From contig JAGGYF010000007.1 of assembly GCA_021162685.1 (NCBI GenBank), positions 1-29,521 on the forward strand: a stretch of DNA of 29,521 bases, read 5' to 3'. This document shows, in pieces, positions 10,102 through 14,454 of this stretch (its first letter is position 1; each line of letters starts with the position of its first letter). Below the pieces are notes generated by a model. The model was not told the origin of the DNA. It did no database searches and saw nothing but the letters and a program-made list of their open reading frames with translations. Source of the stretch: Candidatus Iainarchaeum sp. (lineage in GTDB: Archaea; B1Sed10-29; WALL01). Made by a program: the position numbers and the translations under genes.

Positions 10102-10848
10102 CTACAACTGTTGGTATGGTGGACGTGGTGATGGAATTATAGGACATATGCATGTGCCATCCGATATCTCAACTGTTTTCTCGCTGTATGCAACAGCAGA
10201 ACCCTTTGAATCTATTGCCTCTACGCGATATGTATGTGTACCGCTTCCAGGATTATGTTCAAATGTAGTTGATGTTGTCTCTCCTACTTTACTTCCATCC
10301 ATAAGTATTCTATAGTAACTGAAACATCCGCCTATATCCGTTACTACTGGGTTCCAGCTCAATGAAACATATTGGTCTGTATAATAACACTGTCCTGTTT
10401 GTGGTCTCAGGCATCTCTTAATTCCTTTTCTTGAGAGTACATCTGCACTCAAGCCACTGATAGAAAGTGTTGGGCAAACTGCTTCAAGTTGAATGCCAGA
10501 ACCTCCTCCGCCAGTATAATAGTAGACTCCAAATCCTCCTCCACTGGGTTTTGTTCCTATCTCAACAATCTCCTCCCCTGAAGCATTGCCTTCTGCAACA
10601 AGTTCTGGTTCGTATTCATCCCCTTTATACACAACCTTCTCTGGTGCTGTCTGTGGAGTGCCATCATATGGTTCGTCATACCCAACAAGTTCCACACCCT
10701 TCAGACTCGCTCTATATTTGTCGTATGTAACAATAGATATCTCTTGAGGGGGCTGTGCTGTGCGGAAGATGAGTATAGAGACAATAACAGAGAATATGAG
10801 AATACCTGCAAATATTAGTATATGCTCCAATGCTGCTTGTCCCTTCAT
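10102..10848 (-). CDS. Class III signal peptide (pilin-like) surface protein with a C-terminal FN3/Ig-like domain
   Basis: MKG|QAALEHILIFAGILIF N-terminus; C-terminal VSLSWNP...YYRI..DG..VGET...TYRVEAID resembles FN3. Confidence 0.7.
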   Translation of the reverse strand: MKGQAALEHILIFAGILIFSVIVSILIFRTAQPPQEISIVTYDKYRASLKGVELVGYDEPYDGTPQTAPEKVVYKGDEYEPELVAEGNASGEEIVEIGTKPSGGGFGVYYYTGGGGSGIQLEAVCPTLSISGLSADVLSRKGIKRCLRPQTGQCYYTDQYVSLSWNPVVTDIGGCFSYYRILMDGSKVGETTSTTFEHNPGSGTHTYRVEAIDSKGSAVAYSEKTVEISDGTCICPIIPSPRPPYQQL

Positions 10849-11570
10849 GCACGCACCTCAAACAGATGTATGAACTCTTCAACAGATAGTTGTTCGGGTC
10901 TTTTTCCTACACCTTCCACCTTTTTCCTCCTGTGCCTGAACAACTCTGTAACAAATCTTTCGAATGCGTTATTTTTATCCCTTGCCCTTTTAAAAAGGAG
11001 GGCTTTTGAGTGTATTGGCGGTTCTGGAAAGAAATCGCTCTTGTATAGGTCTGCTATAACGCTAATATCAGCATAGTACTGAGCAATAACAGATATCCTG
11101 GAGTATTGCTCTGTATTCGGCTTTGCCATCAATTTGTTAGCAAACTCCTTCTGACATATGATTGCACCTAACTCAAAGTTAGTTCTGAGAAGTTTTAGTG
11201 TTAATGGCAGAGAAAGTGAGTATGGGATATCTGAAAAGAATTTGTTTGCATCTGGGAATGTTATCTTACGTGCATCAGCCATAATAACCTCAACATTTCC
11301 TGGACACTCCTTCCTAAGGATTGATACCATTCTTATGTCCTTTTCTATTGCCACAACCTTCTTTACTCTCCGTGCTATAATGCTTGTTATGATACCTGGG
11401 CCAGCACCAACCTCAAGAACCACATCATTATTATTGAGCTTTAATGCATCCAATACCTTCTCAAGAACATCATCGTTCACAAGGAAGTATTGATCAAAAC
11501 GTTTGCTTGGTTTTATCCCATATTTGTTCAAATAATAAGCGACTAGTGTCCTCAAACTCATGCGCTCCAT
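10845..11570 (-). CDS. rsmA: 16S rRNA m6(2)A dimethyltransferase RsmA/KsgA
   Basis: PSKRFDQYFL, VLEVGAGPG, AIEKD, SDIPYS, QKEFA, FFPEP and RRKK; conserved position after DUF655. Confidence 0.92.
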   Translation of the reverse strand: MERMSLRTLVAYYLNKYGIKPSKRFDQYFLVNDDVLEKVLDALKLNNNDVVLEVGAGPGIITSIIARRVKKVVAIEKDIRMVSILRKECPGNVEVIMADARKITFPDANKFFSDIPYSLSLPLTLKLLRTNFELGAIICQKEFANKLMAKPNTEQYSRISVIAQYYADISVIADLYKSDFFPEPPIHSKALLFKRARDKNNAFERFVTELFRHRRKKVEGVGKRPEQLSVEEFIHLFEVRA

Positions 11571-12145
11571 CACATTCTCCTTCTCTCTTCTCTTCTCTTA
11601 GAAGGCGGAGCAGTAAAAAGATAATATTTTACATCATCTCCTTTGAGTTCCTCCAAAACCCTCTCCTGAATAACGCGAACAGGATTTGGCATGAGGTGAA
11701 CCCTCTTTGAGATATCCTCAAAACTCTCAAATGGTTTCTTTTCCCTCTCCTCTAATATGCTCTGCATGTGTTTCTTTCCTATGCTTGGAAGCAACTCCAA
11801 TGAATGCTTTCTTATGGATATTGCTCCTGCTTTGTTGAAGAACTCAACGAACTTTTTCTCGTTTGCTTTTATCAACTCTTCAACAACGCCTTCAAGCTCT
11901 GCCTTTGCAGTGCTTGTAAGTTTGTCGTAGGACAATCTGCCCTTTATGAACTTTATCTCCTTTCTTTCGCCTGAACCGATGTACACCTTTTGCCTGAGAT
12001 TTAGGAATACATTTTCTCTTGGAACCAATTCAAGGAGAGTAAAAAATGACGTGCCCACAGCTTGCGCTATCGGTTCTCCTGCATACGAGGACGAATATCC
12101 CCGTGAGAGGTAATCCAACACAATTGCATACTCTTCTTTGTACAT
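11570..12145 (-). CDS. DUF655 putative RNA-binding protein (COG1491)
   Basis: EEYAIVLDYL, AQAVG..FFTLLEL, HSLELLPSIGKK and PFESFEDI; located between rpo4 and rsmA. Confidence 0.92.
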   Translation of the reverse strand: MYKEEYAIVLDYLSRGYSSSYAGEPIAQAVGTSFFTLLELVPRENVFLNLRQKVYIGSGERKEIKFIKGRLSYDKLTSTAKAELEGVVEELIKANEKKFVEFFNKAGAISIRKHSLELLPSIGKKHMQSILEEREKKPFESFEDISKRVHLMPNPVRVIQERVLEELKGDDVKYYLFTAPPSKRREERRRM

Positions 12146-12151
12146 CCTTCC

Positions 12152-12490
12152 TCACTTTCTATATTTATCAACAAGGGACAATACCTTCTTTATGTCATCA
12201 TCACTTAGTTTGTATCGCTTTTTCTCCATGATTACTCTAAGGTCGTCTTTGTCCATAGGCATGTTATCAACAATCATAACTGCAATGTGTTCATCTATCT
12301 TTCCTATCTTCTTGAGTTCCTCTACGAGCTCTGCTGCCTTCGTGGGAGCAAGCTTCCCAAACTCAGATACATGTTCATAAGCAAGTTTCTGTTCGTATGA
12401 TAGCTCTGCCTCTCTCTTTCTTTTCTGGAGCAATGCTTTTGCCTCGCTTAGTGTTATCTCTCTTTCATCAATAACTTCTTTCCCAATCAA
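12152..12490 (-). CDS. rpo4: RNA polymerase subunit F (Rpo4)
   Basis: MIGKEVIDE..ITLSEAK, LSYEQKLAYEH and IVDNMP; TTG start with GGAGG SD; follows rpl21e. Confidence 0.92.
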   Translation of the reverse strand: MIGKEVIDEREITLSEAKALLQKRKREAELSYEQKLAYEHVSEFGKLAPTKAAELVEELKKIGKIDEHIAVMIVDNMPMDKDDLRVIMEKKRYKLSDDDIKKVLSLVDKYRK

Positions 12491-12501
12491 GAATATCCCT
12501 C

Positions 12502-12792
12502 CTACTTTATGGGTTTTAGGTGTACTGGGGACACCAATAAAACCTTCTGCTTTCCTCCGTCTCTTATCTCAACAAGATACGCGCTTCCCTGCTTGCCTTT
12601 TACCACACCGCTTCTCCCCTGGAATCGTGGGTGCGGCATCCCTGAATTCTCTGAACTATCAATAGCAATACTCACCCTCTCTCCTTTTTCAAAGGTTTTG
12701 AGGTACCTATTTATAGCACGTAGGCCCTTCTCTCTGTGGCTTTTCTTCAATTTCCTAGAGTGCTTACTTATCTTTCCTCTGCTCTTTTGCAT
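12502..12792 (-). CDS. rpl21e: 50S ribosomal protein L21e
   Basis: GMPHPRFQGRSGVV.GKQG.AY.VEI.DGGK.K....PVHL motif. Confidence 0.96.
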   Translation of the reverse strand: MQKSRGKISKHSRKLKKSHREKGLRAINRYLKTFEKGERVSIAIDSSENSGMPHPRFQGRSGVVKGKQGSAYLVEIRDGGKQKVLLVSPVHLKPIK

Positions 12793-12915
12793 TTCAAACA
12801 ACTCCGTATCTAACTCAAATCCTTAGGGGATTAGTTTATGCACATTGGTATTTATAAACAGAATGGGGAAACATATATATACTTGTTACTACTAAATAGT
12901 TACAACAGTGGTAGC

Positions 12916-13248
12916 ATGAATGATCAAGAGCTGCTGGAGTTCACGTATCTACTGTTTGGGGTAGGTATAGTCATGCTTGTGTATTATCCCAACCTATTTA
13001 CTGCCCTATTGCCATATGTTGCATTACTTGGTGCATTCTACTTTGTATGGGGGATTATCTCGCGACTAACTGGTGGCTTGCTTGGCGTCCACTTTGCCAG
13101 AAGAAACGACTGGTGGAACGGCATTGTTATACTGACAGTGATTATCCTAGTATATGGCCAGAAAAACACGGCAATAGCCTCTATATATGCCATCATAAAC
13201 ATTATCTGGAGCATATTTACAGGGGTCTTCTCCTTAATTCATGTATAG
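12916..13248 (+). CDS. Small hypothetical multi-pass membrane protein
   Basis: About 110 aa with 3-4 hydrophobic helices; ATG 12916 lies downstream of the TATATATA box near 12880. Confidence 0.65.
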   Translation: MNDQELLEFTYLLFGVGIVMLVYYPNLFTALLPYVALLGAFYFVWGIISRLTGGLLGVHFARRNDWWNGIVILTVIILVYGQKNTAIASIYAIINIIWSIFTGVFSLIHV

Positions 13249-13296
13249 GCTTTATAAATAAAAAGACATCCAATATAAAGCACGCGGGGTGCTTTT

Positions 13297-13566
13297 ATGG
13301 AAGCTAAATTCAAAATAGAGAATATTGTCGCATCAGCGAGTCTGAATGTAGAGCTTGACCTCTACGCCATTGCAAGAAAATTGGATAATGTAGAGTATGA
13401 GCCAGAGCAATTCCCTGGTGCAATCCTAAAGCTCAAGAATCCAAAAACCTCTCTACTGCTTTTTAAGAACGGAAAGCTCATATGCACAGGAGCAAAATCA
13501 GAGGCAGAGGTACATCAGGCCATAGATAAGGCTGTTTCGCTCATAAAACCCTATATAAAGGGTTAG
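13297..13566 (+). CDS. tbp: Single-repeat (half-size) TATA-box-binding protein
   Basis: KIENIVAS..L...LDL, YEPEQFPG, LLLFKNGKLICTGAKS: exactly one TBP repeat (89 aa), then TAG. Has its own TATA (TTTATAAA at ~13251) and a GGGGTG SD. Confidence 0.88.
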   Translation: MEAKFKIENIVASASLNVELDLYAIARKLDNVEYEPEQFPGAILKLKNPKTSLLLFKNGKLICTGAKSEAEVHQAIDKAVSLIKPYIKG

Positions 13567-13567
13567 G

Positions 13568-13575
13568 TTTAAATA
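13568..13575 (+). promoter_or_regulatory. TATA box of the 5S rRNA gene
   Basis: TTTAAATA ending 24 nt upstream of the 5S 5' end. Confidence 0.6.
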
Positions 13576-13599
13576 GAGAATTATACAAAAATATAGGTC

Positions 13600-13720
13600 G
13601 CTGACGGCCATAGCGGAGGGGAAACACCCGGACTCATACCGAACCCGGAAGTTAAGCCCTCCAGCGTTGCAAGTGGTACTAAACTGCGAGAGCGTTTGGG
13701 AAGCTTGCGTCGCTGTCAGC
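13600..13720 (+). rRNA. rrf: 5S rRNA (stand-alone)
   Basis: 121 nt; terminal helix GCTGACGGC/GCTGTCAGC; conserved CGGCCATAGCG, CCGAACCCGGAAGTTAAGCC and GTACT...GGGAA. Confidence 0.96.
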
Positions 13721-13727
13721 ACTTCCT

Positions 13728-13900
13728 CAGCTCCTTTCTTTTTAGAAAAAAGAAAGTGGTTGGCAGTCAAAGAAAAACTATTTCTCTTCTCTCCGAGAAG
13801 CATATTACTGTGGTGCAGCTCCTTTCTTTTTAGAAAAAAGAAAGTAGTTGGCAGTCAAAGAAAAACTATTTCTCTTCTCTCCGAGAAGCATATTACTGTG
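13728..13900. repeat. Tandem direct repeat, 2 x 85 bp (period 88), hairpin-rich
   Basis: 13728-13812 vs 13816-13900 with one mismatch; each unit contains the inverted repeats CTTTCTTTTT-aga-AAAAAGAAAG and CTTCTC-tcc-GAGAAG. Confidence 0.93.
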
Positions 13901-13943
13901 TGCTTTCAGTCCTGCTATTAGGGGGGTGTGGAATCCGAGGGTA

Positions 13944-14200
13944 CGCAAAGCGAAGCAAGGGAGTATATTCCCGTAGTATGCTCTGCGCTTCGCATTGCGC
14001 AGGGGAAACCGCAGGTGTCCCCCAAGACGCTCTTGCATATGGGCGTTCGTTGTGGGATACAAGACCCCACTATTAGAAACTGTTGAGAGGAAGGGGGATG
14101 AATCCCAGGGTTCGCAAAGCGAAGCAAGGGAGTATATTCCCGTAGTATGCTCTGCGCTTCGCATTGCGCGGGGGAAACCGCAGGTGTCCCCCAAGACGCT
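13944..14200. repeat. Two copies of an 88-bp GC-rich palindromic (REP/MITE-like) element
   Basis: 13944-14031 vs 14113-14200 with one mismatch; stems CGCAA.GCGAAGC/GCTTCGC.TTGCG, GGGAGTATATTCCC and GGGGAAACC-gca-GGTGTCCCC. Confidence 0.9.
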
Positions 14201-14454
14201 GCTACGGAGACTATGGGAGAGATTGCTTTTTGCATGAAGATATAACACCATAGAAATATAAAAACATTGAGAAAAGAGGTGCGCCGAAGCGCAACATGAA
14301 AAAATAAAAAACAGTTGCGGAAGTTCGCAACTGCTGTGGCGACTTGTAGTGTTTTCTACATGGTCATTTATAAGCGTTACGCTTGATTGCAATTAGTCTT
14401 CATTTTCCTATTGACACATAACGAAGTGTATCTTGACTAAAAACGAAATAGAAA

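Follow-up and report, generated by a model that had tools for sequence, protein, structure and literature searches.

A One-Repeat TATA-Binding Protein at the Standard TBP Locus of a Candidatus Iainarchaeum Genome and Its Probable Role as Half of a Dimeric Saddle

Introduction

Throughout Archaea and eukaryotes, transcription initiation requires the TATA-binding protein (TBP), and the canonical archaeal or eukaryotic TBP consists of two repeats in a chain of about 180 aa. In the textbook view, the two-repeat saddle arose by an ancient duplication of a homodimeric ancestor. To our knowledge, such an ancestor has never been available for study, and a lineage living on one-repeat TBPs would make the idea of a dimeric ancestor testable.

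Proteins with a single TBP domain are already known, and two kinds are described in PMC3597702. Halobacterial TbpA consists of one repeat and groups with genuine TBP repeats; according to that source, it is very similar to, and coexists with, the full-length TBPs of the same species, and is not essential (PMC3597702). The monopartite TBP-domain proteins of the Thermococcales, such as P. furiosus NP_578195, are stand-alone proteins of about 95 aa with the TBP-domain fold, which are described as strongly diverged, forming separate clusters and occurring beside a normal TBP (PMC3597702). In the open PubMed Central and bioRxiv literature, no paper was found in which an archaeon has a one-repeat protein for its only TBP.

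The one-repeat protein analyzed here, the product of gene A, differs from both kinds. TbpA coexists with a full TBP, whereas no full TBP was found in the organism of the window, in which gene A occupies the TBP locus; and the gene A protein is a near-consensus repeat (105 bits), unlike the diverged proteins of the Thermococcales. With the canonical archaeal TBPs of S. acidocaldarius (1MP9), M. jannaschii (2Z8U), and P. woesei (1AIS/1PCZ), it shares the repeat fold and the DNA-contact and stirrup motifs, and it aligns to both halves of these chains (80.2 bits to the N half and 70.1 bits to the C half of 1MP9; 73.4 and 66.3 bits, respectively, for 2Z8U). Its identity is 43–60% to the repeats of outgroup two-repeat TBPs and 44–47% to solved archaeal TBP chains in Foldseek alignments. 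However, canonical TBP carries two fused repeats per chain and the protein of the window only one, so that a saddle must come from two chains. The clade to which gene A belongs is also set apart by the residues F5, an aromatic residue at position 23, A42, K57, N58, and A79, where canonical repeats have I/V, E/D, L, S/R/G, S, and L, respectively. Two-repeat TBPs inside the clade, from records titled Micrarchaeota or from the phylum of the window, share its locus and carry the signature residues in both halves, but are fused chains.

The One-Repeat TBP Gene

The window is the whole stretch of 29,521 nucleotides that was analyzed, and it constitutes contig 14 of a 1.11 Mb genome in 45 contigs that is 98.41% complete. 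Gene A (13297–13566, + strand) encodes 89 aa followed by a stop codon. Its product gives one match to PF00352 (E 1.6e-30; 105.2 bits against a cut-off of 22.9) that spans profile positions 1–83 of 85, and it contains the motifs NIVAS, EQFPG, and LLFKNG, in agreement with a preliminary description of the locus in which it was read as exactly one TBP repeat. Against the full-length NCBIfam TBP models, the protein reaches 69–96 bits and misses all cut-offs (181–347), because it aligns to one half, either one, of each model.

Gene A does not encode two tandem repeats in one chain; its single repeat is followed by the stop codon TAG (13564–13566, + strand), a single G (13567), the promoter of the 5S rRNA gene, and the 5S rRNA gene itself. 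As previously noted, the TATA box of the 5S gene, TTTAAATA (13568–13575, + strand), recognized by its sequence, starts one base past the TBP stop codon and lies at −32 to −25 relative to the 5′ end of the 5S gene (13600–13721, + strand; Rfam RF00001, 101.2 bits against a gathering score of 38). The interval from the stop codon to the 5S gene is physically too short to accommodate another repeat, and a six-frame search of the locus and the whole genome, which yielded two one-repeat ORFs only, found no second TBP repeat at the gene A locus in any frame, as the preliminary description had maintained.

Gene A also appears to have a promoter and a ribosome-binding site of its own. The candidate TATA box TTTATAAA (13251–13258, + strand) lies 39–46 nt 5′ of the ATG, and a Shine–Dalgarno-like motif, GGGGTG (13286–13291, + strand), lies 5 nt 5′ of it; as sequence matches, both fit the elements proposed earlier. 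TTTATAAA boxes are also found 5′ of the second one-repeat gene of the genome, paralogue B. Past the 5S gene by 14 nt, the T-rich tract TTTCTTTTT (13735–13743, + strand) is a candidate terminator for 5S transcripts and for any read-through from the TBP gene.

Purifying selection on gene A is strong, with pN of 0.13–0.17 versus pS of 0.76–0.96 in comparisons with nine orthologues; pN/pS is given in place of the dN/dS that had been called for, because synonymous sites are saturated and the latter ratio cannot be computed. Among 68 one-repeat sequences, 27 columns are invariant, both phenylalanines and the stirrup included.

The TBP Locus

A 136-aa hydrophobic ORF without a Pfam family (12838–13248, + strand) lies immediately 5′ of the TBP gene, and in loci of the order to which the window belongs, homologues with 35–61% identity are found at the corresponding place. 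Divergent from the TBP gene is a cluster recognized by Pfam matches (10845–12801, − strand), in which KsgA (10845–11573), DUF655 (11570–12145), Rpo4/RpoF (12152–12490), and ribosomal protein L21e (12502–12801) are all encoded on the − strand. The L21e–Rpo4–DUF655–KsgA cluster is located 5′ of the TBP gene, on the opposite strand, in most related loci, and it adjoins one-repeat and two-repeat TBP genes alike (two-repeat genes at L009, L022, L027, L040, L048, L051, L055, L060, L074, L107, and L108); it was not seen at TBP in seven outgroup loci. The shared cluster identifies gene A as the positional orthologue of the ordinary TBP of the lineage, residing at the standard TBP locus.

Gene B is located away from this cluster and adjoins a KaiC-like ATPase: a KaiC/RadA-like gene (L002:1791–2531; PF06745, 101 bits) begins 32 nt past paralogue B. 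A 76-aa ORF lies 5′ of B and is kept next to B-type genes in three relatives.

TBP Content of the Genome

When the entire genome was searched with Pfam in six frames, two TBP-domain ORFs were returned, each with one repeat: gene A and paralogue B, a gene of 90 aa on contig 20 that is unlinked to A and whose product is 66% identical to that of A. Both are intact, and both carry the phenylalanine pair and the stirrup. A custom repeat HMM, run over all stop-to-stop frames with filters off (--max), likewise returned only A and B, the next match having an E-value of 0.1. Neither the six-frame Pfam search nor the custom HMM found a two-repeat TBP in the 98.4%-complete genome, although a draft of 45 contigs could conceal a gene. 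The suggestion that gene A might encode a regulator of a full-length TBP located elsewhere is therefore left unsupported. The genome encodes one TFB, a canonical protein of 302 aa with a Zn-ribbon and two cyclin repeats.

The junction between the TBP gene and the 5S gene is reproduced in two public contigs that bridge the stop codon into the 5S gene with 0 differences (X1, 13352–13757; X2, 13484–13690). These contigs argue only against a local assembly error, since they stem from a single study, may derive from the source sample, and are not independent. Among the public runs listed with the locus, there are no RNA runs; the five matching runs are DNA runs from two studies.

Taken as one reading, it is probable that gene A encodes a genuine TBP, that one-repeat proteins are the only TBPs of the organism, and that two such subunits pair into a saddle.

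Distribution among Related Archaea

The closest titled records are Candidatus Iainarchaeum MAGs, followed by many records of Micrarchaeota, and TBP-domain proteins were searched for in both groups, as had been proposed. In a sample of 30 other genomes from the phylum of the window (G001–G030), 21 have one-repeat genes only, one (G002) has one-repeat genes together with a weak two-repeat-like frame (27 and 44 bits), four have a two-repeat gene (G014, G016, G018, and G019), and the remaining four (G012, G020, G024, and G029), which are 61–89% complete, give no match or fragments only. Within the order of the window, the one-repeat form is the norm, occurring in 12 of the 12 genomes that give a match. 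Orthologues of 88–90 aa are present in the same family and order as the window, and family f3 of this order comprises three genomes (87–96% complete) with an A-type gene only. It had been stated that a two-repeat gene at this locus in close relatives would speak for a recent truncation; close relatives, from the same family and order, have one-repeat genes there, and two-repeat genes at the locus appear in more distant relatives. The short form is thus old and conserved, and not a recent truncation.

A second phylum, that of genome G041 (locus L065; record titled Micrarchaeota), was sampled evenly with 71 genomes, for which a completeness of at least 90% was requested, and the tallies were counted by hand from frame length and the adjacency of matches. 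One-repeat genes only are found in 45 of the 71 genomes, 17 with a single gene and 28 with two unlinked genes (44/70 if G074, a two-gene genome flagged as unpublished, is dropped), although eight single matches in this phylum lie in frames of 164–274 aa, in which a degenerate second repeat is possible. A two-repeat gene alone is found in 24 genomes, both kinds in one (G072), and neither in one (G100). A homodimer would be needed in lineages whose TBP complement consists of one such one-repeat gene. Across species-representative genomes, 80 loci comprise 69 with a one-repeat ORF and 11 with a two-repeat ORF, and the protein database contains 842 matches of 48–156 aa (E ≤ 1e-3), some on contigs longer than 1 Mb.

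Among the two-gene genomes of the phylum of G041, ten were sampled, and every one of them combines one copy from a first paralogue clade, alpha, with one from a second, beta. In nine of these ten, it is the alpha copy that resides at the L21e locus; in the tenth, the cluster is found at neither locus. These alpha/beta pairs of half-TBPs (L115–L134) form a second, independent conserved pair, with beta located away from the L21e locus.

The lineage displays every relevant state, namely single genes, unlinked pairs of paralogues, re-fused two-repeat genes, and a four-repeat frame. The last is a 726-aa frame with four consecutive TBP repeats in G014 (= G045; C8:9538–10695), from the phylum of the window, and four entries of the representative database (P0121, P0122, P0126, and P0194; 272–702 aa) contain three or four matched stretches. 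Several other unusual frames were observed. In two genomes of one genus, a B-type one-repeat TBP constitutes the C-terminal end of a 230-aa frame (L138 in G005 and L143 in G002), the N-terminal 120 residues of which show a negative-scoring repeat trace and may represent either the remnant of a first repeat that has decayed or an extension of unrelated origin. The weak frame of G002 (C1:23919–24398) encodes a divergent two-repeat TBP-like protein of 218 aa beside three one-repeat genes; G002 belongs to the family of the window, and both of its congeners are without this frame. At L042 (3377–3457), a partial second TBP-like frame, cut at the contig end, lies about 110 nt 3′ of a one-repeat gene, and the two might represent distinct one-repeat genes arranged in tandem.

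Relation to the Canonical N and C Repeats

A comparison of gene A with the N and C repeats had been proposed earlier, and a tree was built from 256 repeats over 83 columns, using a quick search with weak resolution. Canonical repeats fall into two clusters, of which one is mostly C (57 C and 5 N rows) and the other mostly N (62 N and 3 C rows), and a third cluster contains all 74 one-repeat rows together with both halves of 12 related two-repeat genes. In a reduced set of 90 rows, the third cluster forms one side of a branch with an SH-aLRT of 98.8. By our own criterion, 2 of 83 columns separate N from C, and these split 1:1, favoring neither an N-like nor a C-like assignment of the one-repeat proteins. 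The one-repeat stirrup resembles that of the C repeat: at column 34, E is shared by all one-repeat rows (100%) and by 82% of the canonical C repeats, as compared with 29% of the canonical N repeats, and the Y-E-P-E-Q-F-P-G motif is invariant in the 74 rows and matches the C-repeat consensus. Forcing all N repeats into one clade costs 48.65 lnL units, with an AU test p of 0.073, which is no formal rejection of orthology between in-clade and canonical N repeats, and the constrained grouping was chosen after inspection of the tree.

Inside the third cluster, the N and C halves of a given lineage group together. The halves of in-clade two-repeat genes are 57–80% identical to each other, versus 46–63% in seven outgroup loci, and A42, K57, and N58 are present in 12/12 N halves and 12/12 C halves of the related two-repeat genes, at columns where canonical repeats have mostly L, S/R/G, and S, respectively. 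Such near-identical halves suggest that, within the clade, the repeat was duplicated anew or the halves underwent gene conversion. In our reading of these sequences, the repeat number would have changed repeatedly in the clade, through tandem duplication, through gene conversion followed by deletion, or through both.

The likeness to a pre-duplication state that had been suggested for gene A holds as an analogy of function. It is conceivable that the one-repeat TBPs of both DPANN phyla (that of the window, with Iainarchaeum titles, and that of G041, with Micrarchaeota titles) are direct and never-reduced descendants of the pre-duplication homodimeric TBP; the N/C duplication of all other Archaea and eukaryotes would then postdate the split of the lineages, and in-clade two-repeat genes would be independent later fusions. 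Direct descent is compatible with the repeat tree, since the one-repeat clade stands as a cluster of its own, outside both the N and the C cluster of canonical repeats. However, repeats differentiated into N and C are common to other Archaea and eukaryotes, and the secondary reduction of the clade founder is thus a more economical inference than a founder that was never duplicated; direct descent seems improbable.

Structure and Proposed Mechanism

The AlphaFold2 monomer of the gene A protein (pLDDT 95.3) has the topology S1-H1-S2-S3-S4-S5-H2. A Foldseek search with this model returned 44 matches at E ≤ 1e-3, all of which are TBPs, and the model superposes on one half of solved TBPs (TMq 0.81–0.93; TMt about 0.45). 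Each of the 35 PDB sequences that match at E ≤ 1e-10 aligns to the query in two stretches and therefore has two repeats. Phe39 and Phe56, which we take to be the phenylalanines that insert into and kink TATA DNA, occupy columns that are F in 96–100% of canonical N and C repeats and in 74/74 one-repeat rows. In canonical TBP, the C-terminal stirrup is the contact for TFB (1AIS), and the one-repeat stirrup, with its Y-E-P-E-Q-F-P-G motif, may serve likewise.

The homodimer model of the gene A protein scored 0.57, and the best of three controls scored 0.00; the mark set for this score is reached by 20 of 30 proteins solved as one-chain pairs and by 1 of 23 single-chain proteins. The homodimer runs have at least 95% contact agreement and a partner pLDDT of 90. 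The modeled interface is composed of residues 3–16, in a symmetric S1–S1 pairing, residues 61–63 of S5, and residues 69–80 of H2, and the clade-specific F5 packs on the partner chain. Because the halves of every solved TBP pack alike, the pass may derive from solved structures that the predictor has learned; what the model indicates is likeness to solved TBPs and not binding. Among the arrangements suggested beforehand, a symmetric homodimer is the reading best supported, by the single-gene relatives and by this model, which passed its controls.

In the proposed mechanism, contacts between S1 strands and between H2 helices would join two one-repeat subunits into a ten-stranded saddle, to which each subunit would supply one DNA-kinking phenylalanine pair (Phe39 and Phe56) and one TFB-type stirrup (EYEPEQFPG). 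The gene A protein can most likely act as a homodimer, and may also pair with paralogue B; as B is kept in 8/8 genomes of families f1 and f2, an A:B heterodimer could be the working form in the organism of the window instead of A:A. We infer TATA binding and the nucleation of the pre-initiation complex by the one-repeat TBP from its being the sole TBP type, from the presence of one TFB, and from TATA-like boxes near stable RNA genes; dimerization and the recruitment of TFB would accompany these activities. Archaeal promoter orientation is set by TFB on the BRE. The one-repeat saddle would be two-fold symmetric, and the direction of transcription would hence be set by a single TFB reading the BRE. 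The proposed saddle raises the question of whether a perfectly symmetric saddle can support directional initiation with TFB and the BRE alone, what is gained from fusion and from the asymmetry of the N and C repeats, and how easily one-repeat and two-repeat forms are interchanged.

Alternative Explanations

An obligate heterodimer, in which A works only with B and two unlinked genes replace the two repeats so as to restore the asymmetry of the saddle, would account for the persistence of two intact, 66% identical proteins that both retain the phenylalanine pair and the stirrup. It would also fit the presence of B-type genes in 8/8 genomes of families f1 and f2, where B-type genes, together with a third paralogue type, are split from all A-type rows by a branch with an SH-aLRT of 98, as well as the one-of-each composition of the ten two-gene genomes in the phylum of G041. 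Lineages with an A-type gene only (the three f3 genomes and 17/71 genomes in the phylum of G041) argue against such an obligate pairing, as an A homodimer must suffice there. The idea of a split heterodimeric TBP, which had been raised beforehand, is in keeping with the presence of paralogue B; however, both A and B lie in the one-repeat cluster, and they do not correspond to the separated N and C halves of a canonical TBP. Dependence of A on B is therefore rather unlikely, and pairing of identical subunits is preferred.

Homodimeric function as an only TBP would be called into question if gene A encoded an accessory protein similar to halobacterial TbpA, modulating or competing with a full-length TBP that the assembly has missed. 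Single TBP-domain proteins do coexist with full TBPs in Halobacteria and Thermococcales, according to PMC3597702, and the genome is a 45-contig draft; however, a two-repeat TBP is missing at 98.4% completeness and likewise in dozens of relatives, some with contigs of 0.8–0.95 Mb, and gene A is a near-consensus PF00352 match that resides at the standard TBP locus, making an accessory role very unlikely. Even less credence can be given to a recent truncation, a pseudogene, or an assembly artefact: although two-repeat genes occupy this locus in more distant relatives, the 88–90 aa orthologues in the same family and order, the 842 database matches, the strong purifying selection, and the contigs that show 0 differences across the junction of stop codon and 5S gene render this exceedingly improbable.

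Linkage of the TBP Gene to the 5S rRNA Gene

The 5S gene of the window is the single RF00001 match in the whole genome, and the placement of its promoter at the TBP stop codon is a conserved arrangement. Of 93 unique related loci, 30 have a 5S gene 3′ of the TBP gene and on its strand; among these 30, 29 have a one-repeat gene and one (L111) a two-repeat gene. In one further locus, the 5S gene is 2 kb away on the other strand. The linked loci span records titled Iainarchaeum and Micrarchaeota. The spacer between the TBP and 5S genes measures at most 89 nt in 17 of the 30 linked loci, and a TATA-like box is found about 25–35 nt 5′ of the 5S gene in each of the 30. In an Rfam check, the 5S gene was confirmed in 18/18 flagged loci and in 0/2 unflagged loci. 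Every f1 and f2 genome (8/8) has its A-type gene linked to the 5S gene; no linkage was observed for family f3, for 20 loci of two-gene genomes in the phylum of G041, or for seven outgroup loci, and it is absent or loose (243–1060 nt) in many relatives.

No run of four or more T residues is found between the TBP stop codon and the 5S start, the first T-rich tract lying past the 5S gene, and TBP transcripts, judged on this feature, probably run into the 5S gene. The seating of the only 5S promoter of the genome on the TBP stop codon suggests a possible link between the supply of a basal factor and ribosome synthesis, and it may be speculated that a TBP-bound 5S promoter, seated where the TBP gene ends, serves in co-expression or feedback. 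If the adjacency is functional, either co-transcription would tie the supply of TBP to ribosome synthesis, or a TBP-nucleated complex on the 5S promoter would block read-through and thereby feed back on TBP. The recurrence of the linkage across both groups of records, with its short spacers and TATA-like boxes, the presence of a sole 5S gene, and the lack of a T-rich terminator before it are consistent with such a role. However, the linkage is missing or loose in many relatives, including all of those in family f3 and the 20 loci mentioned above, and a conserved gene order need not have a function in small genomes that seldom rearrange; a functional adjacency is therefore possible but doubtful.

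By visual inspection of 28 upstream regions, TATA-like boxes are also located 5′ of several tRNA genes of the genome. Aragorn finds 28 tRNA genes in this genome (G000) at 98% completeness, and intron-containing or split tRNAs may be missed. Past the 5S gene, the window contains dispersed repeats (13722–14400), among which an 88-nt unit occurs twice in tandem (13728–13900) and a unit of about 100–170 nt occurs twice (13931–14031 and 14100–14200). Copies of these dispersed repeats, with 80–98% identity, are found on at least 11 other contigs, several of them beside tRNA genes (C12, C15, C20, and C25).
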